DNA from: Clostridiales bacterium
GTDB taxonomy: Bacteria; Bacillota; Clostridia; Oscillospirales; Acutalibacteraceae
NCBI GenBank assembly: GCA_021200555.1
Contig: JAJQGK010000026.1
Location: 19,945-51,944 of the forward strand
DNA length: 32,000 nucleotides
Reading direction: 5' to 3'
Position numbers and translations under genes: made by a program. The number at the start of each line of letters is the position of its first letter. Positions within the stretch are counted from its first letter, which is position 1. Of this stretch, positions 1,318-32,000 are shown piece by piece. The notes beneath the pieces were generated by a model, which saw only the letters and a program-made list of their open reading frames with translations, was not told where the DNA came from and made no database searches.

Positions 1318-1318
1318 T

Positions 1319-9056: not shown

Positions 9057-9893
9057 TTACAAGCCCATCATTTCGCGGACAACTCGGTCTGCCATTTTGA
9101 CCGCACCGACCAAGACGAGCATATTGAACACAAGCTCCCCGATATAGCTCCAGACCATTGTGACTGCCGCCGCATCAGGGTTGACCGCAGGCGGCGTTGC
9201 CGCAAAGACCGAAAAAATGATACAGGCAAGCACAATAATCGCTCCCTCCAGACACACGGCAGCGTATGACTTAATAAAGCTCTTGCCTACATTCTGGCTC
9301 GGCTCTCCCGCAAAAGTTGAGAGGGGAACAGGGGCGATGGCTGTATAAAGATAGAGCTTGAAAAACCTGCCGTATACCGACATGATCATAATGAAACTGA
9401 GTACCGTAATGAACAGACCGCCGATAAGCGTAACCGCCCATAGCGGGATGCTCTCAAAAAAGCCACAGTCCTCCACGGCGGTCACGATTTCCGACGGCAA
9501 GACAGTCTGCGTTGCTGTCCCGAAGCCTGCGGCGTTCATAATAGTGGAAATAATGCCCTGCACAATCTTAAAGAGAGCCATCATCAGCTCCAGACCATAA
9601 GTTACCGCACCTTTGGCAAGGGCAAATCGGATAAAGAGCTTCAATGCGTGTTCGGGCTTCTTGACTTCTGCAAAGTTGCCGCAGGTACGCATCACACCCA
9701 CGACAAAAAACAGCACGAGCAGGGCAAGCCCGATTGCCTGCAACGCACCGTGAATATCAACGATAACATTCCATATCGCACCGCCCTTGAACTGCTCTGG
9801 GGATTGGGTAACGAGCTGCCATATTTCTGCTAACTTCTCATTCCAAGTGTTCAGGGCATTTTCCAAGTTCTGTACGACCCAGTTATCAGACAT
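9057..9893 (-). CDS. VirB6/TrbL-like polytopic membrane protein (CD0415/CD1112 family)
   Basis: 278 aa with at least five hydrophobic helices. AAGGAGGTGG SD. Typical position between Maff2 and PrgI. Confidence 0.8.
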   Translation of the reverse strand: MSDNWVVQNLENALNTWNEKLAEIWQLVTQSPEQFKGGAIWNVIVDIHGALQAIGLALLVLFFVVGVMRTCGNFAEVKKPEHALKLFIRFALAKGAVTYGLELMMALFKIVQGIISTIMNAAGFGTATQTVLPSEIVTAVEDCGFFESIPLWAVTLIGGLFITVLSFIMIMSVYGRFFKLYLYTAIAPVPLSTFAGEPSQNVGKSFIKSYAAVCLEGAIIVLACIIFSVFAATPPAVNPDAAAVTMVWSYIGELVFNMLVLVGAVKMADRVVREMMGL

Positions 9894-9910
9894 TCGACCA
9901 CCTCCTTGTT

Positions 9911-9949
9911 AAAACGGGTTGTCGGGCAGTCCACAATGTGACCTGCCCG
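9911..9949 (-). terminator. Weak hairpin / possible attenuator between Maff2 and the VirB6-like gene
   Basis: Minus strand reads CGGGCAG-(13 nt)-CTGCCCG, then ACAACCCGTTTT. The stem is short and the T-run is short and offset. Confidence 0.3.
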
Positions 9950-9983
9950 ATAAGCCCTGTCTTTTGTCCTCTGGGTATCAAAA

Positions 9984-10346
9984 TCAGCCCGTGATGAGGG
10001 TTAAGATTTCTTTTGCGAAAGTAATAACAACGCCGCCCGCAAGGGTCAGGAAACCGTTCGCCCTCTGGGACGGGTCATGTGATTTGAGGGACAATCCCAC
10101 CTGTACGATGCCGAAGCCGAGCATAATCATGCCGACGGCACGGATCAGACCGAAAATAAAATCCGAGAGGTTGTTGATAACCGTCAGCGGGTCATCAGCA
10201 GCAAAGGCAGTAACGGAAGTGCCAAGTACAAGGGTCACAGCCATAACCGCAAGACAGTAATAGCGGAAGCCCTTTTTGACCCTGCCCGTCATCGGCAGCT
10301 TGGTGGTTCCTTTCTTCTGGGTGTCCTTCATGTTAAAAAGCTTCAT
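9984..10346 (-). CDS. Maff2-family small secreted/membrane protein
   Basis: Signal peptide ending TAFAADDP, followed by two hydrophobic helices (IFGLIRAVGMIMLGFGIVQVGL and FLTLAGGVVITFA). AAAGGAGG SD. Confidence 0.8.
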   Translation of the reverse strand: MKLFNMKDTQKKGTTKLPMTGRVKKGFRYYCLAVMAVTLVLGTSVTAFAADDPLTVINNLSDFIFGLIRAVGMIMLGFGIVQVGLSLKSHDPSQRANGFLTLAGGVVITFAKEILTLITG

Positions 10347-10360
10347 AGATAAATCCTCCT

Positions 10361-12154
10361 TTAGATATTAAATATTTCTTCCAAGTCCTCATCGGACAGA
10401 AGTTCATAGGAAGTGCTGACAGGTATAACGCTTATGGCGTTATCTGGAATTTCACTGTCAAACACGAGGGTTGCAACCGCCTGCGTCGGCTCGCCGTGGA
10501 TATACGGCGGCTGACCTCCGTCGGCAGTCAGCTTTACATTGGGATGCTTTAAGATGTCGTACTTAAAATCCATTACGGGTCGTTCGCCACGCACAAAAAG
10601 AAGCGCATAGCGGTTATCAAGCATACGCACTTCGTCTGGCGTCATCAGCTCACGCCCTGAAATCTGGTAGTTGGTGGAGTAGTTCCCGCTCCGCCCTGAG
10701 CTTTTCCCGTAAGTGTTGGTGTCAATGGTTTCCTTACCCAACAGCTCCGACACATACTTGTGGGTACTCTGCTCATTGCCGCCCAGATATAAAAATTCAT
10801 CGCAGTTGCCCACGATGCTTTCCCATTGTTTTTCAAACAGGGCTTTAAGCTGTGCCAAATTTTGCAGAATGATACTTACCGACACGCCACGGGAACGCAT
10901 TACCGACAGTATCTTGTCAAAATCATCTGGCAGGGAAACATTCGCAAACTCGTCCATAATGAAGTGGCAATGCACTGGCAGGCTTCCGCCGTACTTGTGG
11001 TCTGCCAGATAGAAAAGCTGCTGAAAGAGTTGCGTGTATAAAATCGACACCAGAAAGTTAAAGCTCGTATCGTTGTCAGGTATCAAGGCGAACAGGGCGA
11101 CTTTCTTTTCTCCCAGACTTGGCAGGTCAAGCTCATCGGTGGCGGTAAGTCCTGCAAGGCTCTCCAGATTAAATTTTTCAAGCCTTGCGGCAAGAGTTAT
11201 CTGGATACTCTTTAAGGTCTTGGCACTTCCGCTATGATAATCACGGTAGTATTTCAGGGCGATATGCTCTGGGTTTACCAGTTCCAGACGGTCAAAGAGT
11301 TCGTCAAGGGGGCTTACATAGCTGTCATCGTCCTCACGCACTTCTCCTGCCCGTAAAAGCTCCATCACCATCGGGAAGTTTTGTTCCTCTGGCGGCGCTT
11401 CATATTTGAGATAGAATACCAATGCCAGTAGCAGCATACTCGCCGCCGTATCCCAGAACGGGTCTTGCGACTGGCTTCCTTTGGGCGTTGTCGCTTTAAA
11501 GAGATTTGTCACGAGCCTTTGCACATCGTTGTCGTTCCGAAGATACACAAAGGGATTGTAACAATGGCTGCGGTACATATTGATAAGGTCAAGCACACGC
11601 ACCTCATAGCCTTTCTTTTCAAGCAGACCGCCGATGTCACGGACGATTTCGCCCTTCGGGTCAAGCACTACCATCGAGGTGTTGCACTGCATGGCGTTGG
11701 GCTTGCAGAAAAACCTCGTCTTGCCCGCACCAGAGCCGCCGCAGACCAGAATATTTAAGTTTCGGCGATGCTTCTTCCCGTCCAAGCCGATACGAACATT
11801 CTGGGTGAGCAGCTTGTTCTTTGACGGGTCTTTATCTCGGTACTTTTTATTGAGAGTACCTGTGTTGCCCCATTTTGCCGAGCCGTGTTCCTCCCGCCTG
11901 CGGTAGTTCCTGCGTGTGGAGAAATAAATGCCGATGCCCATAGCGTAGGCAAGCAAAAAAATAAGGACAGTCTTTACGCTGTCCTCACACACCGTTATGG
12001 AAAACGGGTTATTGATTGCCACGGATAAGCCGCTGACTATCTCTACAATGCCGTCGCTGACATAGGGAGCTGTCAGCAGGGCAAGCCACACAACAGGAAC
12101 GATGCCGCAAACAGAAAGGATTAATCCCGTCTTTTGGTCGTTATCGTTCCTCAT
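10361..12154 (-). CDS. VirD4/TraG-like type IV coupling protein
   Basis: Two N-terminal TM helices, Walker A VCGGSGAGKTR, Walker B HFIMDEFAN. The open frame extends to 12211, but ATG at 12154 (MRNDNDQKTG...) gives a 14-nt overlap with the upstream small ORF and is preferred. Confidence 0.92.
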   Translation of the reverse strand: MRNDNDQKTGLILSVCGIVPVVWLALLTAPYVSDGIVEIVSGLSVAINNPFSITVCEDSVKTVLIFLLAYAMGIGIYFSTRRNYRRREEHGSAKWGNTGTLNKKYRDKDPSKNKLLTQNVRIGLDGKKHRRNLNILVCGGSGAGKTRFFCKPNAMQCNTSMVVLDPKGEIVRDIGGLLEKKGYEVRVLDLINMYRSHCYNPFVYLRNDNDVQRLVTNLFKATTPKGSQSQDPFWDTAASMLLLALVFYLKYEAPPEEQNFPMVMELLRAGEVREDDDSYVSPLDELFDRLELVNPEHIALKYYRDYHSGSAKTLKSIQITLAARLEKFNLESLAGLTATDELDLPSLGEKKVALFALIPDNDTSFNFLVSILYTQLFQQLFYLADHKYGGSLPVHCHFIMDEFANVSLPDDFDKILSVMRSRGVSVSIILQNLAQLKALFEKQWESIVGNCDEFLYLGGNEQSTHKYVSELLGKETIDTNTYGKSSGRSGNYSTNYQISGRELMTPDEVRMLDNRYALLFVRGERPVMDFKYDILKHPNVKLTADGGQPPYIHGEPTQAVATLVFDSEIPDNAISVIPVSTSYELLSDEDLEEIFNI

Positions 12155-12338
12155 TGCACCTGCACGGAATGACCCTGACCTTTTTGGTCGGGGCGTTCGC
12201 CACCTTATCAATCAGCTCGTCAACAGGGTCGGTGGGGCGTTCCTCCTGCAACTGCCGTGTACGCAAGGTGTTCAAAGCATTGATAACGATATTCTTGTCG
12301 TACTTGTCAAGTGCGATGTGGTATCGTTCTTCTTTCAT
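12141..12338 (-). CDS. Small hypothetical protein (65 aa)
   Basis: MKEERYHIALDKYDKNIVINALNTLRTRQLQEERPTDPVDELIDKV... ATG at 12338 lies 6 nt after GGAGGTG; the track start at 12347 is a GTG. It appears translationally coupled to the coupling-protein gene. Confidence 0.6.
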   Translation of the reverse strand: MKEERYHIALDKYDKNIVINALNTLRTRQLQEERPTDPVDELIDKVANAPTKKVRVIPCRCNEER

Positions 12339-17410: not shown

Positions 17411-17740
17411 TTATAAAATTCCTGCCTTTTTCAGATACCCAACGCTGTCGTAGCAGCCACGGAAGTAAACCGACTGCATTTCCATATCGGTCAGCTTGTT
17501 CTTTAACTCCGTTACTTTGATAACAGCGGCACATTCTTCCTTTGTAAGCTCCGCCGTCCGTTCCGTATCAAACACCCCTAACACTTTCGGGTACTGCTGA
17601 TACAGGCTCTCAATCTCGTCCTGAATGGCTTTGTATTCTTCATTCTCTTTGGAAAGATTGGCAGCAACAGAGCTTAGATATTCGTTGAATATATTGCTGT
17701 GGGTATCTACAAAGGTTTCAAATCTGAACGCTCCAGACAT
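17411..17740 (-). CDS. Hypothetical helical protein (109 aa)
   Basis: GGAGGTG SD 6 nt before the ATG. Predicted helical, E/K-rich. No family recognised with confidence. Confidence 0.65.
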   Translation of the reverse strand: MSGAFRFETFVDTHSNIFNEYLSSVAANLSKENEEYKAIQDEIESLYQQYPKVLGVFDTERTAELTKEECAAVIKVTELKNKLTDMEMQSVYFRGCYDSVGYLKKAGIL

Positions 17741-17817: not shown

Positions 17818-20800
17818 TTATCGCTCCCGATTTTCACATTTTCTTTCGGGCGGCTCGTCGCTTTGCTCTGGCTCGGCATCAAGTACGGCAGGGTCTTTCT
17901 GGTCTAAATTCAATTCAATATTCAGAGCGTTCAGCCGTTCCGATTTCTCTTTCAGCTCATTTTCAAAGGCAAAGGACTTTTGTACCTCCACCTTTGCGGT
18001 TTCAAACTGTGCGATAGTTTCCGTTCTTTTGGTCTTGGCAGCTTCCAGTCTGGCAGGGAGCTTGGCAAGCTCGTTCTCAATTCGGGTCAGGTTTCCCAGA
18101 GGGTCAGAGCCTAAATCCACCTTATACTTTGCCTTTCCGCAAAGGTTAAGACAGTAATGGGCGTTGACCGTATCATAGAAAACCTCCATTTTGAAGCCAC
18201 GGTAGCTGCCGATTTCGGTAGGTGCGGACAGCGGATATTCCTTACAGATAGCAAGGAGCATTTCGCCTGCGGCTGCCTTTTCGGTGTACTTAATCCCTCG
18301 CAAGGTCATCGGACAGAACTTTTCCTCGCCCTGCGGCTTGTTCTGCTCGGCAAGAACGGTATCCGCTTCATAGCAGACGATACGCTGTTCATACTCCTTA
18401 ATGGTCTGTGGAAAGTATTTGAGTATCCTGTCCTCAAGGTCGTAATGCTCGGAAAGGTAGCTTTGTTTCAGCACTTTGAGCTTGGAAACCTGAATATCCA
18501 AATCCATTTTCTCCTTAAAACGCTCATCGCCTGTGGCAAGCATTTTGACCTCCGCAAAGGACAAAGCAACCTCGTCCACATCTTCGGCAGAACGGACAGG
18601 GCTTTTGCTCGTCATTATCTGGCTGATAAATTTCTGCTTACTCTCCACCAACTGATAGAGGTAGGCATCAAAAGTCTGCTCGGTCACATAGCGGTAAACC
18701 TCAACCTCTGGGAACATATTTCCCTGCCGTTCAATACGCCCTTGCCGCTGTTCAAGGTCAGAGGGTCGCCACGGACAGTCGAGATTGTGAATGGCGATAA
18801 GCCTGTCTTGGACATTCGTGCCTGCACCCATCTTCTGGGTGGAGCCTAACAGCACACGCACTTCGCCGCTTCTAACCTTGCCAAACAGCTCCTTTTTCTG
18901 TGCATCGGTAGTGGCTTCGTGAATAAATCTTATCTGTTCGGCAGGAACGCCACGGGCGATTAGCTTCTCCCGAAAATCGTCATAGACATTGAATGTGCCG
19001 TCATTTTTCGGGGTAGACAGGTCGCAGAAAATAAGCTGCGTTGCCTTTGTGTCGGCGTGTTCCTCCCAGATACGGTACACATTGTCGATACAGGCGTTGA
19101 CCTTGCTGTCTGGGTCATCGGGCAGCATCGGGTCAATCATTCTCTGGTCGAGGGCAAGTTTCCGCCCGTCATTCGTGATTTTAAGCATATTGTCAATGTT
19201 CGGCTCTACAAGCCTTGCCCTGACTTTCTCGGCTCGCTTGGCAAGGGAAGCCACCATTTCGGTCTGTATCTCGCTCGGCTTAGTCTTTACATTGTGGTAA
19301 TTGACCTTTGGCACGGGGAGCTTTAGCATATCGGCGGTCTGTATATCCGCCACCTCACGGAACATCATCATCAGCTCTGGAAGATTGAAAAACTTGGCAA
19401 AACGGGTCTTCGCTCTGTAATTCGTGCCTTCTGGTGCAAGCTCCAGAGCTGTGACCGTTTCGCCAAAAGTGGAAGCCCAACTGTCAAAATGCTGCAAGCC
19501 GTTCTGCATCAGAGTGTCGTACTGCAAGTACCTCTGGACAGAGTATAGCTCCACCATTGAGTTACTGACAGGCGTACCCGTTGCGAATATCGTGCCACGG
19601 TTGCCCGTGATTTCATCCAGATAGCGGCACTTCATAAAGAGGTCGCTTGACTTCTGGGCTTCGGTCTGGGCAATGCCGCCCACATTCCGCATCTTGGTAT
19701 AGAGGTACAAATTCTTGTAAAAATGGCTCTCGTCAATAAAAAGTCGGTCTACGCCGAGCTGTTCAAAGTCGATGACCGAGTCCTTGCGTTTGGTATTATT
19801 GAGCTTGTCGAGCTTCGCCTTTATCCCTTTTCGGGTTTTCATAAGCTGCTTAACCGTGAACTGTTCACCGTGGGATTTCTGTATCTCGTCAATGCCCATC
19901 TCTATATCGTCAAGCTGCCGTTGTAGCTGCTCCCTCTGGCGTTCCATGCTCATCGGGATTTTTTCAAATTGGCTATGCCCGATAATGACCGCATCATAAT
20001 CGCCCGTAGCGATACGGGAGCAGAACTTCTTGCGATTGCCCGTTTCAAAATCCTGCTTCCTTGTCACAAGAATATTGGCACTCGGATAAAGCCGCAGGTA
20101 CTCGGAAGCCCACTGACCGACAAGATGATTTGGCACAACGAACATTGCTTTATTGCATAGTCCGAGCCGCTTGCTTTCCTGTGCGGCGGCGACCATTTCA
20201 AAGGTTTTACCTGCCCCGACCTTGTGGGCAAGGAGCGTATTCCCGCCGTAAAGGATATGGGCAATAGCGTTGACCTGATGGGGTCTTAGAGTAATCTCTG
20301 GGCTGATACCGCCAAAAGAGATATGGCTTCCGTCATACTCACGGGGGCGTACTGAATTAAAAGTATCATTGTAGTACCTGACAAGGCGGTTTCGCCGTTC
20401 TGGGTCTTTCCATATCCAATCCTGAAATGCCTGTTTGATAGTTTCCTGCTTTGCCTGTGCCGCCGTGGTTTCCTTTGCGTTGAACACAGCTTTTTTATTG
20501 CCGTTTTCATCGTACACATAGTCAAAAATACGGGTGTCACGCAGATTTAAGGTGTCCTCAATAATACGATAAGCGGAAGCCCTCTTTGTACCGTAGGTGC
20601 TGTCCGCCTTGACATTTCCGTAATCTGAACTCTTATTCTCAATAAACCAGTCGCCGTTCATCGGGGTGTAGCGTACCTTTAGCCTGCCCATTGCATAGCT
20701 TGACGGGGTTAATAGCTCCACCACAAACCGCTGAATATCCTCCTGCGGTATCCAAGTCGTACCCAGACGGACAGAGATTTCAGCCGCAGACAGGTCTTGC

Positions 20801-23800
20801 GGTATGACCTGCTTTAAGGCTTCCACATTGACCGTAAATTCTGGGTTTTCTTTCGCTGCGGCTTCGGCAGTCAACAGCTTTGTTCTCACATTGCCCGACA
20901 AATACTCATCGGCGGTCACATACCGAGCAGGCTCACTTGCAGGGATACGGAAGATAACGTCCTGTAAGTCCTTAATGATTTCTTCCTGTGTTTTGCCTGT
21001 GAGCTGTTCCATATAGGATAAGTCAACACGGGCTTTCTCTCCGATAGAGAGTGCAAGGGCTTCGCTTGCAGTTTCCACGGAAGTGATTTCACGGTGGGGC
21101 TTTATCGTCCGTTTTGTAAACATATCCGCTTTTCGCTTGAAGTTGCCCTCATCGTCAAGCACCTCCAGAGAACACAAAAGGAAGTAGCTCTCGTCCGATG
21201 CAAAGGCAAGGTAATTTCCTCGGCTGTTGATAAGCCCGTATTTCTGGGCAAAAGCATCATACAGGCGGTTTAAGTTTTCCTGCTCGGTCTGTATCATTTC
21301 CTCTGGGTAGTCCTCGGTCTGATACTCAATGAGCTTTCTCACGCAGTCACGGATTTGGATTAGTCCCTTAATGCGGTTTTCTGCGGTCATAGATGCCGCC
21401 GCAGGGGTCATACGGTCATTTTCTCGGAAGTAAACCTTACCGTCCACCAACGCATACGAGAAATTTCGTACATTCGGGTCGGTAGGAATAGAATTGTCCT
21501 GCTCATCGGAGATTTCATCAATCTCGTTGTCGTACTCAGGGATTTCGCCCTGAATATTCTGGACAGCATTGTGCAACAGCTCCGACAGGGGCGTATCCTG
21601 ATATGCTTTACAGGCAGAGTCAAAGCCAAACCGTGTGCTTTCCATTTTCATCTCGCCCAAAATCATTTCAGGGTGCTGCACAAAATAGCTGTTCATCCTG
21701 ATCCCGTTCTCATCAGTATCAAGGTGTACCCAGTCAGGCTCTATATCGCTAATGCGGTCACGCTTCTGCAAAAAAAGAATATCACTTGTGACCTCCGTGC
21801 CTGCATTTGCCCTGAATGTGTTGTCGGGCAGTCGAATTGCTCCAAGCAGCTCAGCTCTCTGGGCGATATACTTCCGCACCTCTGGGCTTGCTTTGTCCAT
21901 TGTACCCTTAGAGGTAATGAATGCCACCACGCCGCCTTTGCGTACTTTATCCAGAGCCTTTGCAAAGAAATAGTCGTGGATGAGGAATTTCTGGGCATTG
22001 TAGCGGATGTCATTGACCTTAAAATCTCCAAACGGCACATTGCCGATAACCACATCAAAATGGTCGTCAGGGAGCTGTGTTTTCTCAAAGCCCTCTATGG
22101 CAATATTTGCTTTCTGGTAGAGCTGCCTTGCAATCCTGCCTGTGAGTTCGTCGATTTCCACGCCGTGGAGCTTGCTGCCTGCCATACTGTCGGGAAGCAG
22201 ACCGAAAAAATTTCCTATGCCGCAGGACGGCTCCAAGAAGCTGCCCTCGGAAAATCCCAGACGATCAAGGGCTTCATACATTCCCTTAATCACAACAGGC
22301 GGCGTATAGAACGCCGTCAGGGTGGATTCCATCGCCGCACGGTATTCCTCTGGCGACAGGCTTGCGTATAGCTCCTGAAACTCGTTTGCCCACGCTGCGT
22401 TATTCTCATCAAACGCCATTGACAGACCGCCCCAACCAACATACTTGGAAAGGGTTTCCTGTTCTTCAGGTGTGGCAAGGCGGTTTTCAATCTCCAGTTC
22501 GTGCAAAAGGTTGATTGCCTCCATGTTGCCCCTGAATTTTTCTTTTGCGCCGCCTATACCTAAAGTATCCTCAGAAATGCGGTAGTTGTGTCGTAAAGCA
22601 GAGGGAACGGCAGGCGTTTTATCCTTTTCTTCTGGTAGTAATTCTGGCTCGTCAAAGCGTATTTTCTCGACAACAATATCATAGGGAAGTCCGTTTTCCT
22701 CGGCGGAGTATTGCTCCACCGTTTCCGTAGATGCCTGTACGCCTGCTGCGGGCTGGTTTTTCCCCTGCTCCAGAAGGCTTCGAATATAGCCGATTTTCTC
22801 CACACGGTTGATAGGGAAACCTACGCCATCCTTAAAAGTAATGTCACGCATCGACACATCGCCGCTGACTTTCCCAACGCTTTCAATGAGATAGCGGCGG
22901 TTGTCTACGACGATTTCCTTGCCGATAAGGTCAGAAGTGTCCTGTTCAGCAGGCTCTAAACCTTGCTTTGCCCGTTCCACATAAAGCCATTCCGCAGCCT
23001 CTTTATCGGCAACCTCTTTTTTGACCACCGCAAGTCCTGTTTCGGCTTCTTCCTCTGTAGGATAGGTCAGTACCTTGTCGTAGCTGTCAGCGTAGTATTC
23101 CTCTCGGATATTATCCCAGATAGCAAAGGCATCTTCGGGGTCTGGGAACGCATCGGAAGTCATAACGACCTCAAAGCGTTCTTCTGGCGGCTCGTTTTCG
23201 CTTTCTGCGGCTGCCTTTTCCACATAAGCAATCATTTCGTCTACCGCAGACGATTTTTCCTCGACAGGAGCAAACCATTCCTTTTCAAAGGACATTATCT
23301 CGTCAAAGAGTTGTCTGTCCTCTGGGGTCAGGTCTTTGTGCTGCTCCAGATAGGGGATAAACACATCCCGTCCCCACCGCAGGCTTTCCATCTTTTCACG
23401 GTAATAATCCTCGCCCTGCCGTTTCCATTCTGGGATAAATGGACAGTTCGGGGAGAGGGAATATTCATAAAAGTTTTTGATGTGGGCAATTAGGTCGCCC
23501 TCTCCGTCGCCAATGTCAAAACGTCCTTCATAGGTGTGTTCTTCTCCGCTGATAACTGTCCTGATGGTAAAATCTGTCTTATGATACCAACCGACATTAT
23601 CATCGCCCTCACGCTCACGGTGCTGCTTTTCGTCCAGAACGCCGAGAAGGTAATTTCCGAGGGCGAAGCTTATATCGGTATAGCGGTCATTAAACTGCCT
23701 GTCATAAAAGGCAGGATGTTCAGAAAAACCAATAGAAAAGCTGATGCTGTCTGGCTTTTGTTCAGAAAGTGTTTCCGATTTCTGTTTCTCGGTCACAACA

Positions 23801-25995
23801 ACCTTCAGGTGGTCGTTTGCAGGGTTTTCCTTCAGCTTTTCCTCAAAGTCGGCACGGCTGAATTCTTTGCTGAACAGGGGAAACTCTGCATTACGCAGGT
23901 AAACGGCATCCCCGCTCAGATCAGAGATTTCGTATCTATCCGCACCGATATATACCACATCATTCTCGTGGTAGAGGTAGCGAAGCGGATACAGCTCCAG
24001 AAGCTCCTGCGAAAATCGCCACGCATTGCTGCGGCTGTAAACATCAGAAGTCTTTAGCTGTACCAGAGCAAGGAAGTCAATGAGCTGCTGAACGGTGGCG
24101 GGGTCGCCTAGATGTTGTTCCATTTGCACGGCACTCACTTCGGCAAGGTCGTTTCTGTTGACATTTTCAAGCAACCCTTTTTCATAACCGTCCAAGTCAC
24201 GAATAAAATCGGACAGCCGCAAAGAGAGTGTATCCCGCTTATCGGCAAGGGGCAGGTCACGGTGGGCATCAATAAATCTCTGCCTGTTGACTTTTTCCTG
24301 CGTGTCGATTTCATACTGCGGAGCTTCCACGCTCTTTAGATATTCGGGATAGTGGTCTTTCTCTTTCTCATTCAGATAGCGGTTATTCTTTATCAGCTCA
24401 CGCAGCCGTTTTTCCACCTTGCCCCAAGATAGGATAATGTCAGGGCTGGTGTATGAGCCGTGTTTCTCGATATGGATGCCCTTTCCGTCATGGGAATGAC
24501 CGCCTTGTGTTCCGTCTGGGAAAATATGCGTACCACCGCCAATGCCATATTCATTTTTCAGGAAAGCGATGTTGCTTTTACTGTCCTCATGTTTTGCAAA
24601 CTGACGGTAGATGCGGTATTTTCCGTTCTGGAAACCGCTTCCCGATAAAAGAACAGAGTCAATATCCTCTTGAGAAACGGAAAAAGCAGAGGATTTTTTG
24701 TCCTCTGCTTCCATCATCATTTCAATCTGTTCGTCTACGGTAGGGAGATTAGCCCTGACCTCAGTTTCATTGGCGATGCTTTCCTCGGCAGGCTGTGACC
24801 CGTCTAATTGTAAATCAGCTCGGTCAGTATCACTTCCTCCGCCTGACTGCGGATGTTGTTCATCAATCCGACCCACTGCATCGGGGCTTTCGCTTTCAGT
24901 TCCTCGGTCACGCCCTGTTCGGCTTGTAGCTGCTTCGTCAGAAGTTCTAACCGTTGTAGTGCTGTCTGCTCTGTCTGATGCAGGTGTTCGTTCAGCCTGC
25001 CTGTTGTCAGCAGGTTGAGGTAGGTCACTCTCTTGTGCTGCTCCAGATAATCCCTGTGCATCAAAGCGTATCTGCCAAGCGGAAGCTCTGGCTCTGTCGC
25101 TAATGTCAGGTCGGGAATAAGATAATCGCCCTGTTTGGTGTAAGTGATTTCGCTCATTATTTTCGCTCCTTTCGGGTTGTTTTCTGCCTATATCATACTG
25201 ATTTTGCGGATTGGGTGCAAAGCTGCGATTTTGGCTTTTCTCTGCAATTTGCACATCTCGGATAGTCTGTGAGATTTCCCTGAGCGCCATTTCCGCAATA
25301 TCACTTGTGGCAATACCGAGGGCGTTAATGGTGGCGGTGGTATTGAAATTGATAATCTCCTGAAAATCCTCACGGTCAAAAAACTCGCCCGTGTCCAGAC
25401 CGCAGCGGCTGATCAGCATAAAAGCAACGCTGTTTGCTGCCAGCCGCTTATAGATGACCTCCACATTGAAGTCGTCCAGTTCTTCCAAGAAGCTGTCCTT
25501 TGTGCAGTCCTGTAACTGTGAAAGATAGTCCTGTAAATTATACTCGACAGCGTTCTTTGCCGTTTCCATTAAAACAGAAGCAAGGTCAGAGCCTTCGACC
25601 TCTCCAAACCTGTCGGTAAGCCTTTCCATAACAGCCTGCTCGTATCGCTCATTCATCTGCCATATCGGAACGGGGCGGCTGCCATAATACCCTTCATGCG
25701 TGTCTGACACATCAAAGTAATATTTCAGCGTGTTCCTGCGACCTTTCGGGTCAAAGACCGCTATGCCTTTGCTGTCCTTATTGACCCACCGCCGAAACTG
25801 TTTGTTCCAAGTTTCAAGCTGTGCCACGGCAATGGCATCAGGGCGTTGGGCATAGATTAGAAGCTGTTCGTCAAAACGGCATTTATAGTTGCGGCAGGCG
25901 GCAGCTAAAAAGTTCTGCCACGCCTGCGGATTTTTCGCCACGGCAACACCTGTACGCCGATACAGCTCTGTGATTAGCTGATACTTCGCAGCCAT
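17818..25995 (-). CDS. Giant polyvalent protein: ArdC-N-like ssDNA-binding domain, low-complexity linker, LPD-type domains, N6-adenine DNA methyltransferase, SNF2-family helicase (P1 DarB-like architecture)
   Basis: 2725 aa with an AAGGAGGTGG SD. N-terminus: LLIYAQRPDAIAVAQLETWNKQFRRWVNKDSKGIAVFD. MTase motif I FLEPSCGIGNFF (nt ~22204-22233) and motif IV VIGNVPFG (nt 22027-22044). Helicase Walker A AHKVGAGKTF (nt ~20199-20229), DEsH box FIDESHFYKN (nt 19711-19737), and helicase-C GSTQKMGAGTNVQ (nt ~18813-18847). Confidence 0.9.
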   Translation of the reverse strand: MAAKYQLITELYRRTGVAVAKNPQAWQNFLAAACRNYKCRFDEQLLIYAQRPDAIAVAQLETWNKQFRRWVNKDSKGIAVFDPKGRRNTLKYYFDVSDTHEGYYGSRPVPIWQMNERYEQAVMERLTDRFGEVEGSDLASVLMETAKNAVEYNLQDYLSQLQDCTKDSFLEELDDFNVEVIYKRLAANSVAFMLISRCGLDTGEFFDREDFQEIINFNTTATINALGIATSDIAEMALREISQTIRDVQIAEKSQNRSFAPNPQNQYDIGRKQPERSENNERNHLHQTGRLSYSRPDISDRARASAWQIRFDAQGLSGAAQESDLPQPADNRQAERTPASDRADSTTTVRTSDEAATSRTGRDRGTESESPDAVGRIDEQHPQSGGGSDTDRADLQLDGSQPAEESIANETEVRANLPTVDEQIEMMMEAEDKKSSAFSVSQEDIDSVLLSGSGFQNGKYRIYRQFAKHEDSKSNIAFLKNEYGIGGGTHIFPDGTQGGHSHDGKGIHIEKHGSYTSPDIILSWGKVEKRLRELIKNNRYLNEKEKDHYPEYLKSVEAPQYEIDTQEKVNRQRFIDAHRDLPLADKRDTLSLRLSDFIRDLDGYEKGLLENVNRNDLAEVSAVQMEQHLGDPATVQQLIDFLALVQLKTSDVYSRSNAWRFSQELLELYPLRYLYHENDVVYIGADRYEISDLSGDAVYLRNAEFPLFSKEFSRADFEEKLKENPANDHLKVVVTEKQKSETLSEQKPDSISFSIGFSEHPAFYDRQFNDRYTDISFALGNYLLGVLDEKQHREREGDDNVGWYHKTDFTIRTVISGEEHTYEGRFDIGDGEGDLIAHIKNFYEYSLSPNCPFIPEWKRQGEDYYREKMESLRWGRDVFIPYLEQHKDLTPEDRQLFDEIMSFEKEWFAPVEEKSSAVDEMIAYVEKAAAESENEPPEERFEVVMTSDAFPDPEDAFAIWDNIREEYYADSYDKVLTYPTEEEAETGLAVVKKEVADKEAAEWLYVERAKQGLEPAEQDTSDLIGKEIVVDNRRYLIESVGKVSGDVSMRDITFKDGVGFPINRVEKIGYIRSLLEQGKNQPAAGVQASTETVEQYSAEENGLPYDIVVEKIRFDEPELLPEEKDKTPAVPSALRHNYRISEDTLGIGGAKEKFRGNMEAINLLHELEIENRLATPEEQETLSKYVGWGGLSMAFDENNAAWANEFQELYASLSPEEYRAAMESTLTAFYTPPVVIKGMYEALDRLGFSEGSFLEPSCGIGNFFGLLPDSMAGSKLHGVEIDELTGRIARQLYQKANIAIEGFEKTQLPDDHFDVVIGNVPFGDFKVNDIRYNAQKFLIHDYFFAKALDKVRKGGVVAFITSKGTMDKASPEVRKYIAQRAELLGAIRLPDNTFRANAGTEVTSDILFLQKRDRISDIEPDWVHLDTDENGIRMNSYFVQHPEMILGEMKMESTRFGFDSACKAYQDTPLSELLHNAVQNIQGEIPEYDNEIDEISDEQDNSIPTDPNVRNFSYALVDGKVYFRENDRMTPAAASMTAENRIKGLIQIRDCVRKLIEYQTEDYPEEMIQTEQENLNRLYDAFAQKYGLINSRGNYLAFASDESYFLLCSLEVLDDEGNFKRKADMFTKRTIKPHREITSVETASEALALSIGEKARVDLSYMEQLTGKTQEEIIKDLQDVIFRIPASEPARYVTADEYLSGNVRTKLLTAEAAAKENPEFTVNVEALKQVIPQDLSAAEISVRLGTTWIPQEDIQRFVVELLTPSSYAMGRLKVRYTPMNGDWFIENKSSDYGNVKADSTYGTKRASAYRIIEDTLNLRDTRIFDYVYDENGNKKAVFNAKETTAAQAKQETIKQAFQDWIWKDPERRNRLVRYYNDTFNSVRPREYDGSHISFGGISPEITLRPHQVNAIAHILYGGNTLLAHKVGAGKTFEMVAAAQESKRLGLCNKAMFVVPNHLVGQWASEYLRLYPSANILVTRKQDFETGNRKKFCSRIATGDYDAVIIGHSQFEKIPMSMERQREQLQRQLDDIEMGIDEIQKSHGEQFTVKQLMKTRKGIKAKLDKLNNTKRKDSVIDFEQLGVDRLFIDESHFYKNLYLYTKMRNVGGIAQTEAQKSSDLFMKCRYLDEITGNRGTIFATGTPVSNSMVELYSVQRYLQYDTLMQNGLQHFDSWASTFGETVTALELAPEGTNYRAKTRFAKFFNLPELMMMFREVADIQTADMLKLPVPKVNYHNVKTKPSEIQTEMVASLAKRAEKVRARLVEPNIDNMLKITNDGRKLALDQRMIDPMLPDDPDSKVNACIDNVYRIWEEHADTKATQLIFCDLSTPKNDGTFNVYDDFREKLIARGVPAEQIRFIHEATTDAQKKELFGKVRSGEVRVLLGSTQKMGAGTNVQDRLIAIHNLDCPWRPSDLEQRQGRIERQGNMFPEVEVYRYVTEQTFDAYLYQLVESKQKFISQIMTSKSPVRSAEDVDEVALSFAEVKMLATGDERFKEKMDLDIQVSKLKVLKQSYLSEHYDLEDRILKYFPQTIKEYEQRIVCYEADTVLAEQNKPQGEEKFCPMTLRGIKYTEKAAAGEMLLAICKEYPLSAPTEIGSYRGFKMEVFYDTVNAHYCLNLCGKAKYKVDLGSDPLGNLTRIENELAKLPARLEAAKTKRTETIAQFETAKVEVQKSFAFENELKEKSERLNALNIELNLDQKDPAVLDAEPEQSDEPPERKCENRER
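24804..25157 (-). CDS. tnpV: TnpV-family protein ORF nested out of frame (+1) inside the giant polyvalent gene
   Basis: 117 aa: MSEITYTKQGDYLIPDLTLATEPELPLGRYALMHRDYLEQHKRVTYLNLLTTGRLNEHL...PMQWVGLMNNIRSQAEEVILTELIYN. This matches the transposon-encoded TnpV family over its full length, by recollection. AAAGGAG lies 8 nt upstream of the ATG. An in-frame TAG lies 12 codons upstream, so the ORF is exactly family-sized. Confidence 0.6.
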   Translation of the reverse strand: MSEITYTKQGDYLIPDLTLATEPELPLGRYALMHRDYLEQHKRVTYLNLLTTGRLNEHLHQTEQTALQRLELLTKQLQAEQGVTEELKAKAPMQWVGLMNNIRSQAEEVILTELIYN

Positions 25996-26250: not shown

Positions 26251-26949
26251 CTATCGTTCTAAATCTTTGTGTTTAGGAGCTTTAATCGCCGCTTGCACCT
26301 CTTGGGGCTTCGGCTCATAGGTTGCTCCGTTTTTCTCCATACGTTCGGCAAATTCGCAGATATGGAAAAGGTCGTTGCCAACTTCCGTATGGTACTCATC
26401 AATGAAGCGGCAGGAATATTCCGATTTTTCGCCCCACGATGATGTGATGATGATTTTGCCGCCGTCTGGGATACGGAACAGTTCTTTGTAGTTCGGGTCG
26501 ATAAATCGGATGCCCTGTTCTGCTTTGGAAATGTGGCGGTCAAGCCATTCCTTTACATAGCAGAAGCAGTAAAAGTTGTAGTCGCCCTTAGTGGGATTGC
26601 ATCGGAACAGAAATGCGTGTTTCTCCGTATCGACACGAAAGCCGTACTCGGTACAATAATTCCCCTTAAAGGAGCTGTCGGGGAAACGCCTTGCAAACGC
26701 ACTCATATCATAGCGGTTGTGCAAAAGTCCTTTGTCCTCACGAAGCGAATTGATAATCTTGTCAAGCCCTTCCTTAAACTCGTCCGTTTTCCATTGCGGT
26801 CTGGCATCAAACCAAGTGGTAAAAAAGCCACAGCCAGAGGTATCAAAATCGCCACGCAGATAACCGATATTGCCTGTCTGCCCCTGAAGCTGCATACTCT
26901 GGGAATAGGTGTATTTCTGTTCATTCGGCTGTAATGATCGTATCTTCAT
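26251..26949 (-). CDS. Conserved ICE protein of unknown function (232 aa; possibly an LPD-type domain found free-standing)
   Basis: AAAGGAGCAGC SD. The ATG directly abuts the upstream stop (TAAATG). MKIRSLQPNEQKYTYSQSMQLQGQTGNIGYLRGDF resembles proteins I recall from related elements, but I cannot name the family reliably. Confidence 0.65.
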   Translation of the reverse strand: MKIRSLQPNEQKYTYSQSMQLQGQTGNIGYLRGDFDTSGCGFFTTWFDARPQWKTDEFKEGLDKIINSLREDKGLLHNRYDMSAFARRFPDSSFKGNYCTEYGFRVDTEKHAFLFRCNPTKGDYNFYCFCYVKEWLDRHISKAEQGIRFIDPNYKELFRIPDGGKIIITSSWGEKSEYSCRFIDEYHTEVGNDLFHICEFAERMEKNGATYEPKPQEVQAAIKAPKHKDLER

Positions 26950-27976: not shown

Positions 27977-30900
27977 TTAGTCCTCCTTTTTCTTCTTCCT
28001 GCTCTTAAAGCCAACAACACCGAGAACACCTGCACCGATAAGGGATATTGCCGCAAGGCTTACCCACAAGGCAGGATTGAAGTCATCGCCTGTTTTCGGT
28101 GTGTCACGAAGCTCATTGTGCATCTGGACAATGGTGGTTGCTCCGACCTTGACCGTTGCCTGCTTGTCGGCAGGGAGAATATAGCCTGCGGAAGCATTAT
28201 CGCTGACCTCGGAAACGGTGTATTCGCCAATACGCAAGCCCTCAATGAAGATTTCACCGTTTTTGTCGGTCTTAAAGGTCTGGTCATAGTCCGTGCCTGT
28301 TACCCTGAAAGAGAAGCCCTCCAGTTTTCCGTTAGAGGAAGTCTTGACGATTTTCAGGGAGCCTTTCTGTGCGGTGTTGATAAAGCCAACGCCTGCCTTG
28401 TTCTCTACGGCATAGGTCTTTCCGTTTTCCTCAATGGATACGCCATACACGCCCTCGTCAAGCACAAAGCCCTCTGGGGCTGTCTTTTCACGGACAAGGT
28501 ATTTGCCGTATCTGAGGTCGCCCATCTGATAAACGCCTTTTTCCACTTCGCCCATTTCTCCGAGCAGCTCGTCGTCCTTGTCGAGCTTTCCGTCGCCGTT
28601 TTTATCGGTGTAAACCTCAAAGACCGCACCTGTCAGCTTGTTTTCAGGATAATCCTCGTCCACCTTTGTCAGTTCGATTTTGCCTGTGATATAGAAGTTT
28701 ACAAGCTCGATTTCTACAACCTCATCGACTTTGCCTATAGTGACAGGGATTTCTTCCTCGGAGAGTACAAAACCTTTCGGGCTTTCGATTTCACGAATGA
28801 CCCAAGTTCCGTAAGGCACTTTGGCAAAAGAAAAACTACCGTCATCTGCTGTGACAGTAGTCTGAATTGCTGTTTCCTTTGTAAACTCGGTTGTTTCCGT
28901 CTTAAAGATGCCGATAACCGCACCGCTAAGAGCCTTTCCGTCCTCATCGGATTTCAGACCGCTGACAGAGCCGTAAATCAGCTTGTTTTCAATGGCGTTG
29001 CCCTCGTTTGCCGTGATGTGGACGGTGGCGGTGTCCTGACCTGCGTACTCAAAGTTTACGGGATATTTGGTATCGCTCGTCAGATAAGCCGCATTGGTCT
29101 TGATTTCCTGCACATAGTAGCTGCCAATCGGCAGGTCGCTGATTGCCTTGCCGTGACCATTCTCATCAAGGAAGATGACCTCAATCAGACCGTCAGCAGG
29201 GATAGTCTTTCCGTCTGCGGCAGTCAGTTCCTCGGCGGCATACAAGCCAAAGGTTACATCGGCAAGCTCGCCGTTTTCGCCCACGCCGTAGTCCTTGTCT
29301 GTTTCAAGGGTTTTCACAAGGTCAATTTCCACACGCTGACGCTCGTTCACAAAACCTGTGGCAGTTTCCGTTACGGCGATTTCCTGACCTGCATATACAA
29401 GCTCGACAGCGTGGATTTCCTCATTCAGCACCATACCGAATGGAGCAGCAACCTCTTTGACCTCGTACTTTCCGAGATACAGCTCTTTGGATTTTGCCGT
29501 ACCGTCTTTGCCTGTGGTAACGGTGTCCACAACCTCGCCCTTAGAAGCTCTGAGCGTTCCGTCCAGAGTATAAATATCCTCGGCTGCGGTAATCTCATAG
29601 ACCGCACCCTCCAGATTGCCGACAGAGAAAATAGGCTGATACAAGCCCTTGTCGCCTGCAACGGTGCTGAACACCTCGCCAGATTTGGTTACGGTAACTG
29701 TGCCTTTCTGTGCCAGATTGGAGCGTACCACTTCGATAACGGTAATGCCACTTTCTTCCTCGGAGTTCTCCTGCATTACATCAAAATAGACAGGCTCGGA
29801 GTTCAGCACATAGCCGTAAGGAGCTTGCACCTCAACCAGAGAATAGCCCTTGCCGTATTCCAAAGTCTGCGGTGTGATGAGGTTGCCGTCTGCGGTGGTG
29901 TAAAAGGTATCAATGGTCGTCACTTCTGGATAAGTGAAAGTCATAGATACAAGGCTGCCGCTTGGGTCATAAATCTGGAAGCCTGCCCCTGCATACGGGA
30001 TTGTCTTGCCCGTTTCTGCATCTTTTTTGACAATCTTGATATAGCTCTCAAAGTTTGCGTTGTTGATAAGGTAGCGGTAGGTCTGACCGTCCTGATTGAT
30101 AAATATATCAAAAGGCTTCATCAGCTCACGACCCTCCCAACCAGAGGTCTGCTTCACGGTATAAATGCCGTATGGCATATCCTTTGTCTGGGCAAAGCCG
30201 TTCTCATCGCAGGTGAGTATATCTCGCTCGGTTTCCTTTGCCGCTTCATAGCTGCCTGCGGCTTTCAGGTAAACCTCAAAAACAGCTCCTTCTTCGGGTG
30301 TTTCAATCTGTGTTTCTCCGTTGTCGGTGTGTTTGATAATGGAGATGTTACCCTTAATAACCTGTTCATTCACGGCGTTTTCCGTGCTGTTCAGCTCCAC
30401 GGTATAAGCTAAAGGCTCTGCACCGACCTTATGAATAGTGGTGTCAAGCAGATAGCCCTCGGACGGGCTGATTTCTCGGACAGTCCAGTCATTGGCACAA
30501 ATATAATACTTGGTCGTAAACTGACCGTTTGCATCGGTGGTATAAGTGTCAATGAGTTCTTCGCCCTTGTAAATGCCGTACACCGCACCTGCAAGGGAAG
30601 CGTCGCCCTGCGGCTTGCCTGTTTCCGCATCGGTCTTTGTGACCGTTACATTGAATTTCTTTAAGATGTTGTGGAAGCTGCGGTTTGTGACCTTGTTCCA
30701 TTCAATCGGGGCGGTCTGGGAAGCAGGAACGACATAGCGGATTGCGGTATCCACTTCCTCTAAGGTGTAAGGGGTGTTTCCGCTGATAAGGACATTTTCA
30801 AACTTTGCAACGCCCTTTTCGTTGGTTACGGCATATTCGTCTACGGGATGACCGCTAAGGGAAGTGCCGTAAAGGTGGAATTTCACTCCCTCCACCAAGT

Positions 30901-32000
30901 TGTCCTCGGAAGTCTTAACCACTTCAAGGCTTCCACGCTTTAAGACATTGCTGAAAGTGACGGTTGTGGTCTTGCCGCCGATAAGGGTAATGGTCTGGGT
31001 CTGCTGCGGCTCATATTTATCAATCGCCTGTTCCGTAATGGTGTAGGTGTCAGGTACTAAGCCTGCCACGGTAATATTGCCGTTTTTATCTGTTGTGACC
31101 GTCTTACTGAAGCTATTACCCTTTATTGTAAACTGGATGCCCTCTACAACGCCGTCCTCGGAAGCCTTTTTCAGTGCAATCGTTCCTGTAGGAGTTTCCA
31201 CGTTAAGGTAGGCGGCTACCGTATCGGCATTTTCAACGCCTGTTACCAAGTCCTGAAGGTTCGGGTCGCCGTAGGCAATCAATTTTGCGCTGCTGCTGAC
31301 CGTCGGCACGTTGTTCCTCGTTGCGGTAATGCGTACCGTACCGTCAAAGGCTTTGGCAGAACTTACGGTCAACTTGTTCCCAGATTTTGATACGGTTACG
31401 CTGCTGTCAGAGCTTGTAAAGGAATAATCCGACAGGACACCGTTGCTGTCCGTAAAAGTCAGCGTGTATTTGCCGTCCTGATAGGAAAGCTTTTTCGTGA
31501 CGCCATTCTTGCTTCCCGACATAAAGCTTGGAATGGTGTTATGCTCCGTCAGCAGGGAGACGATCTGGTCATACGCTGCCTTTGCCCCACTGTTGGGGTA
31601 GTTTGACCCGAAATGCAGGCTGTAAACTTTGTTGCTGGTCTTGCTATATGAGCCTGTGGCTTCACGGCAGCCTGTGACAAACTCCCATACAAGGGTCTGT
31701 GTCGCAAGCCATTTCTCATCATCGCTGCCTGTCAGATTTCCTTTGTTGCCCTGATACCCGTAGAGCAAGGCAAGCCCGACTGCCTTTTTCTGATTGGCAG
31801 AAAGGGCGTTCCAAGTGTCCGAAGATGCTTTCGTCAGGGTGTTGCCTGTTTTCAGCGGTACGCCCGGCTGAATGCAGAAGGCGTTTTCCCCATCCACAAA
31901 CATACGGTACTTATAGTTGCCTGTGCCGCCTGCGGTATGACCGTCAAAGGTGGCACTTGAATTGTATCTCATCGCATTGCCGCTGCTGTCGTAGGTGTGG
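27977..32000 (-). CDS. Cell-wall-anchored adhesin: thioester (TED/TQxA)-like domain, about nine or more Cna-B/SpaA-type repeats, and a TPKTG sorting signal; N-terminus beyond the window
   Basis: The frame stays open from 31972 to the window edge (...HTYDSSGNA-MRYNSS). AFCIQPG (Cys codon 31874-31876) and ATQTLVW (Gln codon 31697-31699). Repeated G-x-Y-x-(V/I)-x-E and DENG/DANG/DKNG motifs. C-terminus: TPKTG (28088-28102), a hydrophobic helix, then KSRKKKKED. Confidence 0.88.
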   Translation of the reverse strand, partial: HTYDSSGNAMRYNSSATFDGHTAGGTGNYKYRMFVDGENAFCIQPGVPLKTGNTLTKASSDTWNALSANQKKAVGLALLYGYQGNKGNLTGSDDEKWLATQTLVWEFVTGCREATGSYSKTSNKVYSLHFGSNYPNSGAKAAYDQIVSLLTEHNTIPSFMSGSKNGVTKKLSYQDGKYTLTFTDSNGVLSDYSFTSSDSSVTVSKSGNKLTVSSAKAFDGTVRITATRNNVPTVSSSAKLIAYGDPNLQDLVTGVENADTVAAYLNVETPTGTIALKKASEDGVVEGIQFTIKGNSFSKTVTTDKNGNITVAGLVPDTYTITEQAIDKYEPQQTQTITLIGGKTTTVTFSNVLKRGSLEVVKTSEDNLVEGVKFHLYGTSLSGHPVDEYAVTNEKGVAKFENVLISGNTPYTLEEVDTAIRYVVPASQTAPIEWNKVTNRSFHNILKKFNVTVTKTDAETGKPQGDASLAGAVYGIYKGEELIDTYTTDANGQFTTKYYICANDWTVREISPSEGYLLDTTIHKVGAEPLAYTVELNSTENAVNEQVIKGNISIIKHTDNGETQIETPEEGAVFEVYLKAAGSYEAAKETERDILTCDENGFAQTKDMPYGIYTVKQTSGWEGRELMKPFDIFINQDGQTYRYLINNANFESYIKIVKKDAETGKTIPYAGAGFQIYDPSGSLVSMTFTYPEVTTIDTFYTTADGNLITPQTLEYGKGYSLVEVQAPYGYVLNSEPVYFDVMQENSEEESGITVIEVVRSNLAQKGTVTVTKSGEVFSTVAGDKGLYQPIFSVGNLEGAVYEITAAEDIYTLDGTLRASKGEVVDTVTTGKDGTAKSKELYLGKYEVKEVAAPFGMVLNEEIHAVELVYAGQEIAVTETATGFVNERQRVEIDLVKTLETDKDYGVGENGELADVTFGLYAAEELTAADGKTIPADGLIEVIFLDENGHGKAISDLPIGSYYVQEIKTNAAYLTSDTKYPVNFEYAGQDTATVHITANEGNAIENKLIYGSVSGLKSDEDGKALSGAVIGIFKTETTEFTKETAIQTTVTADDGSFSFAKVPYGTWVIREIESPKGFVLSEEEIPVTIGKVDEVVEIELVNFYITGKIELTKVDEDYPENKLTGAVFEVYTDKNGDGKLDKDDELLGEMGEVEKGVYQMGDLRYGKYLVREKTAPEGFVLDEGVYGVSIEENGKTYAVENKAGVGFINTAQKGSLKIVKTSSNGKLEGFSFRVTGTDYDQTFKTDKNGEIFIEGLRIGEYTVSEVSDNASAGYILPADKQATVKVGATTIVQMHNELRDTPKTGDDFNPALWVSLAAISLIGAGVLGVVGFKSRKKKKED

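Follow-up and report, generated by a model that had tools for sequence, protein, structure and literature searches.

The 32,000-nucleotide stretch of contig JAJQGK010000026.1 that was analysed here (the window; Clostridiales bacterium, family Acutalibacteraceae, assembly GCA_021200555.1) carries a complete gene of the TnpV family, with its own Shine-Dalgarno sequence (SD), nested out of frame inside an 8.2-kb gene for a polyvalent protein. This had been the central claim of a preliminary description made from the sequence alone, and it was supported. The locus is very probably a true dual-coding pair, in which an old tnpV cassette is read in another frame as a disordered tether between the header and the body of the giant protein. 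Comparison of the relatives established that both open reading frames (ORFs) are conserved, that the TnpV frame is constrained at the amino acid level, that stops are avoided in the giant frame, and that the initiation signals of the nested gene are conserved. Among the three interpretations offered at the outset, a true overprinted gene pair was the best supported.

The tnpV coding sequence (24804–25157, minus strand; 117 amino acids and a TAG stop) lies in the +1 frame of the giant ORF (17818–25995, minus strand), wholly within it, on the same strand and in a different frame. As described before, the giant ORF is uninterrupted and encodes 2725 amino acids. A profile hidden Markov model search aligned the 117-residue ORF end to end with the Pfam family TnpV (PF14198; profile positions 1–111 of 111, 144.3 bits at a cut-off of 27, E = 1.7e-42) and thus substantiated its reading as a full-length member. 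The protein also matched phrog_24764 (E = 3.9e-35), a PHROGs family of unknown function, and was modelled by AlphaFold2 (AF2) as a beta-hairpin followed by five helices, with a predicted local distance difference test score (pLDDT) of 82.6. For TnpV of Tn4451, an Xis-like role in transposon excision was postulated (PMC3158075). On its 5' side, the nested ORF is bounded by a TAG (25188–25190, minus strand), which is the 11th codon upstream of the ATG and not, as first counted, the 12th. This TAG is not kept, and the tnpV frame of the relatives is open for 27–285 nt upstream of the ATG. Within the overlap, 7 of the 118 giant-frame codons are CGA and 5 are TTA, compared with 19 CGA and 18 TTA in the remaining ~2570 codons, which agrees with earlier remarks on these codons. 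As a control for chance openness, the equivalent alternative frame was followed through eight ordinary coding stretches of the window, where a stop occurred every ~14–16 codons and 0 of 5741 segments of 118 codons were open. The open giant frame over tnpV is therefore not a matter of chance.

The same arrangement was found in many relatives. A scan with the TnpV protein of one genome per GTDB species yielded 80 loci, mostly from Lachnospiraceae and other Clostridia (TnpV identity 86–98%), and together with the window and one ENA contig these formed a close set of 82 loci. The giant frame is open across tnpV in all 82, and in 60 of the 69 loci free of contig-end cuts the giant ORF is intact and extends 838 nt or more upstream and 5.9 kb or more downstream. 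Strains with this locus include Sporofaciens musculi WCA-9-b2, Coprococcus aceti H2_11, and Petralouisia muris. Three records of a plasmid collection with a TnpV identity of 47–53% showed nesting in the same frame inside open stretches of ~2000–3200 codons. A scan of IMG/VR with the TnpV alignment returned 78 loci (31–97% identity), of which about 33 are nested, always in the same frame, within an ORF that begins 790–916 nt upstream and, where intact and not cut by a contig end, reaches up to 8.7 kb downstream. The remaining IMG/VR copies are stand-alone, with closed alternative frames. Eight loci of the close clade carry a second, stand-alone tnpV paralogue (45–48% identity), in which both alternative frames are closed as well. 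The proposed check on homologues thus found that the giant genes of the relatives keep the nested ORF, its SD and its stop. An assembly or sequencing artefact, in which a spurious indel joins separate genes in the window, has a negligible probability. Indel-bearing variants of the region do occur in public assemblies, but the same architecture and frame are replicated across more than 130 independent loci (isolate genomes, metagenome-assembled genomes, plasmid records, and IMG/VR contigs), which excludes this explanation.

In a search anchored on the giant protein's N-terminal domain, tnpV was found in the +1 frame inside the N-domain ORF at 56 of 59 loci. Of the three loci without nesting, one is cut by a contig end, one carries a Mu-like insertion, and one has an internal deletion. 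A header-body gene that is intact but lacks a nested tnpV was not found among these 59 loci. Database proteins of 282 and 406 amino acids with this N-domain were considered as unfused headers and rejected, as they result from a contig end and from a frameshift 3' of tnpV. At the locus with the Mu-like element (L208, 1640–5700), the header gene is interrupted directly after residue 254, and the element contains two helix-turn-helix repressor-like genes, a 604-residue transposase, and a MuB-like ATPase.

Constraint was analysed frame by frame, a check proposed with the preliminary description, and revealed amino acid selection in the TnpV frame together with selection against stops in the giant frame. 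For this analysis, 61 distinct copies of the overlap without gaps were taken from the close clade, and nonsynonymous (pN) and synonymous (pS) differences per site were estimated by the Nei-Gojobori method. Variable sites at TnpV codon positions 1, 2, and 3 numbered 52, 36, and 87 of 117, respectively, and pairwise amino acid identity over the overlap was 0.89 in the TnpV frame versus 0.73 in the giant frame. The pN/pS ratio was 0.20 in the TnpV frame, 1.44–1.45 in the giant frame, and 1.16 in the third frame, which always contains stops over the overlap. In the flanks of the giant gene, it was 0.17 (header) and 0.23–0.24 (after the linker). From these frame-wise ratios it follows that selection over the overlap acts on the amino acid sequence of TnpV and not on that of the giant protein. 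In the TnpV frame, pS was 0.33 versus 0.50–0.58 in the flanks, as would be expected if part of the synonymous divergence is forbidden.

How such a restriction would arise can be read from the codons themselves. A TnpV codon that ends in T and is followed by a codon starting with AA, AG, or GA creates a stop in the giant frame, and each tnpV gene has ~34 codons at risk in this way. The counts of third-position T were limited to codons for which NNT is synonymous. In 61 close sequences, T was never found at the third position of at-risk codons (0/1464) versus 27.6% at safe codons. The result was the same in 88 unique nested genes including distant ones (0/2099 versus 25.7% at safe codons) and in 26 further nested genes from the N-domain-anchored set (0/607), which adds up to 0/2706 over the sets of 88 and 26 genes. 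Since 48 stand-alone tnpV genes (23.7%) and ordinary genes of the window (27.6%) use T normally at such codons, the absence is not a dinucleotide or codon-usage effect. The at-risk third positions do vary, among A, C, and G. To allow for shared ancestry, changes were counted by parsimony on a neighbour-joining tree. Synonymous third-position changes to T numbered 1 of 63 at at-risk versus 74 of 315 at safe positions (Fisher p = 7e-6), and for C-to-T changes alone the counts were 1/21 versus 58/83 (p = 4e-8). Stand-alone tnpV paralogues contain 2–8 stops in the corresponding frame. Selection keeps both frames of the nested pair, as seen from the pN/pS of 0.20 in the one and from the 0/2706 in the other.

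These counts bear directly on the proposal that tnpV alone is functional and that the long ORF is either a fusion undergoing decay or an accident that was passed on, with header and body being separate or dead genes. Such a situation would be in line with the missing amino acid constraint on the giant frame across the overlap, with the disrupted giants at some loci, and with the output of Prodigal-type gene callers and of the Prokaryotic Genome Annotation Pipeline (PGAP), which give tnpV and an N-terminally truncated giant. However, stop avoidance is context-specific and backed by event counts, and the frame is still open at 36–53% TnpV identity, where the nucleotides have largely turned over. 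In addition, header and body are under purifying selection (pN/pS 0.17–0.24), and no separate SD-associated start for the body is conserved. The proposal is thus considered highly improbable.

The nested gene has independent initiation signals. Its SD, GAAAGGAG (25166–25173, minus strand), ends 8 nt 5' of the ATG, exactly where an AAAGGAG had been reported. All close relatives have GGAG precisely at −12 to −9, and so do those with 36–53% identity when the true ATG is used, and the eight bases between SD and ATG vary freely. The signal GAAAGGAG-N8-ATG is invariant or nearly so. This argues against the idea that the giant gene alone is functional and that the nested ORF is a frozen, untranslated relic of a captured tnpV. 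In principle, the nested position could silence an internal start, but the TnpV frame has a pN/pS of 0.20 with variation mostly at third positions, and ATG, stop, and length of the nested gene are kept in at least 114 unique copies, down to ~36% identity. Because the giant frame is unconstrained at the amino acid level, it cannot explain the conservation of the overlap, and a mere relic is highly implausible.

Further upstream of the SD, the giant frame is hypervariable with conserved islands, which consist of TTG, 17 unconserved nucleotides, and TA..AT. In the window, they coincide with a candidate −35 box TTGCAC (25215–25220, minus strand), whose TTG forms the first island, and, 17 nt after it, a candidate −10 box TATGAT (25192–25197, minus strand). 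A motif TTGNNN-N16-18-TANNNT was found upstream of 68 of 75 unique nested copies, with a spacer of 17 nt in 67 of the 68, and in the controls it occurred at 2 of 44 stand-alone tnpV copies and in 12 of 672 control windows (1.8%). The residue encoded at the −10 box varies (D/N/H/A), yet hexamer positions 1, 2, and 6 stay TA...T, the final T is never C, and position 5 is always A in 51 main-clade sequences. Since the spacer length is fixed inside a region that tolerates change, the motif resembles a promoter more than a protein motif, and an internal sigma-A-type promoter (TTGCAC-17-TATGAT) is the probable driver of tnpV.

The giant gene starts from its own SD (AAGGAGG, 8 nt 5' of the ATG). Its product has the order ArdC-N-like header, disordered linker, LPD25, N6-adenine methylase, and SNF2-type helicase, and the Pfam domains found in the 2725-residue ORF are LPD25, N6_Mtase/Eco57I, SNF2-rel_dom/ResIII, and Helicase_C. 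The window also encodes a relaxase, a T4 coupling protein, a VirB4-like ATPase, a lysozyme/CHAP protein, a Toprim protein, and a SpaA/TED adhesin. Several unrelated effector domains, among them a methylase-SWI2/SNF2 dyad and an LPD, are thus combined in one protein of a conjugative element, and because of this domain set and the neighbouring conjugation genes the giant was assigned to the polyvalent proteins in the sense of Iyer et al. 2017 (PMC5512222). In one relative (L170, 15299–17140), the giant gene is truncated (1699 amino acids) and followed by a reverse transcriptase of the group II intron type (RVT_1), and an intron may have inserted into that polyvalent gene.

The header (~residues 1–255; 25231–25995, minus strand) is kept in all relatives with 27–94% identity. 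It had been called ArdC-like, which is weakly supported, and it may be distantly related to ArdC-N. Four of 15 diverged header homologues matched the Pfam family ArdcN (PF08401; best E = 5.9e-4), and the conserved core QRPDA...WN...RWVxKGxKGIA...YxFDxSDT resembles ArdC-N by eye. The window copy itself gave no Pfam match (the best being the unrelated DUF4381, E = 0.06), no PHROG, and no sequence match in the PDB, a profile of the 15 homologues retrieved only chance matches to uS2 from the PDB, and the AF2 model of the ArdC-N-like core (residues 51–114) was of low confidence. According to a published proposal, ArdC-N serves at the N-terminus as a 'header' through which a polyvalent protein is coupled to transferred DNA (PMC5512222). 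If the header acts in this way on the body, the header-body linkage would be what selection protects.

The linker (~residues 256–410; 24766–25230, minus strand) consists of the promoter-like region, the SD, and the coding sequence of tnpV read in the other frame. In an AF2 run on giant residues 1–470, it had a pLDDT below 50 and no secondary structure. Hydrophobic residues are scarce in it, and R, S, A, D, Q, G, and P are abundant, which confirmed the low-complexity linker noticed before. It includes the stretch RLSYSRPDISDR. No relative has a giant-frame stop in it. Just 3' of the tnpV stop, 19 giant-frame codons after it in the window, a helix-forming motif NLPTVDEQIE...AEDxKSSAF is conserved, distant relatives included. 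The in-frame ATG triplet MMMEAEDKK (24712–24720, minus strand; giant residue 426, in accordance with the position of about 24720 given earlier) is where gene callers place the start of a truncated giant. Of 70 relatives, 16 lack its Met, and in 60 that stretch contains no start codon associated with an SD. As a start for the body it was rejected, since it is not conserved and usually lacks an SD. With no conserved SD-associated start for the body, a stop in the linker would also abolish translation of ~2300 codons.

These data also speak to the third interpretation offered at the outset, namely that programmed +1 frameshifting (or slippage at A-runs) yields a header-TnpV fusion and that the body is made by internal initiation at MMMEAEDKK. 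Dozens of in-frame header-TnpV fusions of 396 amino acids are found in the protein database, both frames are open for 168–285 nt upstream of the tnpV ATG in many relatives, and that ATG is closely preceded by a strong internal SD. In prfB of E. coli, +1 shifting is stimulated by an SD-like element. However, the fusions change frame at different positions and, where compared, differ from near-identical intact relatives by single-nucleotide DNA indels, as in L085, which has a 1-nt deletion next to an A-run, and the assembly behind L087 contains frameshifts all over the region. Neither a heptamer nor another shift site is conserved, the spacer between SD and ATG is free to vary in sequence, the tnpV frame of the window is closed 33 nt upstream of the ATG, and the downstream Met is inconstant, as stated above. 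Giant-frame stop avoidance inside tnpV would moreover be pointless if ribosomes had already left that frame, which further weakens this interpretation, and it is judged very unlikely.

The 396-residue fusions were accordingly rejected as evidence for programmed frameshifting, in view of their heterogeneous junctions, the DNA indels, and one error-ridden assembly. Their common length is explained by the fact that any single +1 shift inside the doubly open region gives ~396 amino acids. Examples are L085 (6881–8071), P0121, P0122, P0158, P0177, P0220, and P0223, with indels often at A-runs. These indels are sporadic. Some of the fusions are assembly errors (L087), and others may be real knock-out variants that split the giant gene. 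In L089 (10001–11300), a frameshift just 3' of the tnpV stop separates a 406-residue header-linker protein from a 2356-residue body, and the nested tnpV is intact.

For the dual-coding pair, the following course of events is proposed. Ribosomes would start at the SD and ATG of the giant gene (25995), translate the ArdC-N-like header, cross the tnpV cassette one nucleotide out of register and thereby make a disordered tether of ~150 residues, and continue into the body with LPD25, methylase, and SNF2-helicase. The sequence of the tether would be irrelevant and its openness essential, because it is the sole route by which ~2300 downstream codons can be translated and attached to the header. Separate ribosomes would start at GAAAGGAG-N8-ATG, probably on a transcript from the internal promoter, and make the 117-residue TnpV, whose amino acid sequence is under ordinary purifying selection. 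Since the TnpV family has many stand-alone members, tnpV would be the older frame and the giant-frame linker the younger, overprinted reading. This linker most likely arose when a header gene was fused to a methylase-helicase gene across, or around, the tnpV cassette. Read-through of a former tnpV gene that fused two ancestral genes had been put forward before as an explanation in its own right. It is retained as the most likely origin and is compatible with an overprinted pair, but it is inferred, with no unfused ancestor found.

Several observations weigh against the dual-coding pair or limit it. It is from signatures of selection alone that we infer the production of both proteins, and we likewise infer the activity of the promoter and the origin of the arrangement. 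An unfused ancestor, with header, tnpV, and body as three genes, was not found in the N-domain-anchored scan. Giants are shortened or disrupted in 9 of 69 genomes, and frameshifted assembly variants that split the giant gene exist, so the header-body fusion can be lost, at least transiently. The promoter-like motif was found in only 14 of 26 copies of the more diverged set and is missing in some diverged clades, and its conservation could partly reflect giant-frame residues (NRTF...QYD). A neighbour-joining tree of the 117-residue TnpV was poorly resolved and the nested copies were not cleanly monophyletic, which gives no clear support to a single origin of nesting. For TnpV itself, a Foldseek search of the AF2 model against the PDB gave no significant fold match (all E > 4), and a PADLOC search was without match.

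A more far-reaching version of the dual-coding pair might be plausible, although it is put forward with reserve. In this version, an ancient tnpV cassette (promoter, SD, and coding sequence) was engulfed when header and methylase-helicase were fused and has been retained as an obligatory module ever since, over the entire radiation of this family of conjugative elements in Clostridia. If true, the locus would be an unusually old and well-replicated bacterial dual-coding locus in which the frame of the host gene is the overprinted one. TnpV would then serve the polyvalent protein as a dedicated partner, such as a regulator, a chaperone, or a transfer adaptor, and nesting would keep the two from being separated.

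Nested same-strand genes are already known, and the case reported here is distinguished by a nested gene that is the older one, by a host frame that is overprinted, and by a pairing that is obligate across a large radiation. Examples come from phages, with Rz1 within Rz of lambda and B within A and E within D of phiX174, where both products are functional. They share with tnpV the full same-strand, out-of-frame embedding and the independent initiation. In these phages, however, both frames are constrained in sequence and the genomes are compact, whereas here one frame is constrained only to stay open and the setting is a Clostridia conjugative element of more than ~30 kb and not a size-limited virus.

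A bacterial parallel is comS of Bacillus subtilis, a small gene that shares its strand but not its frame with srfAB, the very large multi-domain gene around it (PMC12915044). The likeness lies in a small gene nested in a giant multi-domain gene and, for comS and srfAB, in the expression of both from one locus. ComS, however, is a lineage-restricted peptide of 46 amino acids that is overprinted on an old non-ribosomal peptide synthetase gene and shares its promoter. In contrast, tnpV is old, with a 117-residue product that belongs to a widespread Pfam family. It seems to have retained a promoter and SD of its own and is paired across very deep divergence with a host-gene reading that is young and unconstrained.

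With the described polyvalent proteins, the giant shares a putative ArdC-N-type header, LPD25, the adenine methylase-SWI2/SNF2 dyad, and neighbours of the type IV secretion system and relaxase kind, but an obligate nested gene in the header-body linker is outside the described architecture. The polyvalent-protein paper of Iyer et al. 2017 makes no mention of TnpV, overlapping genes, or frameshifts (PMC5512222). No published description of a tnpV nested in a polyvalent gene was found in the open-access literature. Stand-alone tnpV genes, as in Tn4451/Tn4453-type elements and many plasmids, belong to the same family with 42–48% identity and similar length. They differ in having 2–8 alternative-frame stops, normal use of third-position T at at-risk codons, and the promoter-like motif in only 2 of 44 copies, and their neighbours are serine recombinase or mobilisation genes or else the giant gene, which they then follow directly.

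The locus offers a natural dual-coding experiment, in which distinct nested copies (more than 110) can be set against dozens of stand-alone members of the family as controls. Selection acts on sequence in one frame and on openness only in the other, and the cost is measurable as ~34 third positions per gene barred from T. The polarity of overprinting is reversed, as the frame of the large gene is the newcomer over an older small gene, and this suggests a route to gene fusion without deletion of the gene in between. The tight connection of TnpV to polyvalent proteins with an ArdC-N-like header gives a lead on TnpV function, and two single-base mutations that would knock out TnpV and the giant product separately could provide a handle on it.

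Annotation of these loci in public contigs is affected as well. Gene calls list tnpV and an N-terminally truncated giant, and in GCA_045062245.1 a gap of 852 nt is left where the header is encoded. For NZ_OY725736.1, RefSeq/PGAP gives tnpV and an 'SNF2-related protein' that starts 1.9 kb downstream, with no gene listed in the header region, which may be marked as a pseudogene, as the PLSDB table omits pseudogenes. Among the 120 best database matches to the header, there were 0 full-length giant proteins. The missing header annotation looks like a systematic failure caused by nesting. That the header has no family model is probably because annotation leaves its region of ~850 nt uncalled, and polyvalent-protein architectures in elements of gut Clostridia are under-described owing to this error. 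Regions without a listed gene were seen at L170 (8149–9001) and L083, in the latter at 9160–10022 (header, ~850 nt) and over a further 1.9 kb (10354–12271).

In several related elements, a second stand-alone tnpV paralogue is placed by the giant gene (L017, 16904–17278; L063, 16580–16951; L075, 16409–16780; L078, 16766–17137; and likewise in L059, L067, L095, and L106). Its start coincides with the giant's stop codon or precedes it by a few bases, and it is 42–48% identical to the nested copy. TnpV-like genes are thus tied twice over to the polyvalent genes of these elements. The window has a DUF6664 gene (17411–17740) at this place.

Just upstream of the giant gene, the window contains an ORF of 232 amino acids without Pfam match (26251–26949, minus strand), and called genes of 230–235 amino acids are found at the same position in related elements. 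Beyond it lies a surface protein of 1331 amino acids (27977–31972, minus strand) with a thioester domain (TED) and nine SpaA-type repeats, which is kept upstream of the polyvalent gene in related elements and is probably a mating adhesin. At the edge of the conjugation module, a response regulator and a histidine kinase are encoded on the opposite strand (613–2710, plus strand), and this pair may be cargo or a regulator of the element.

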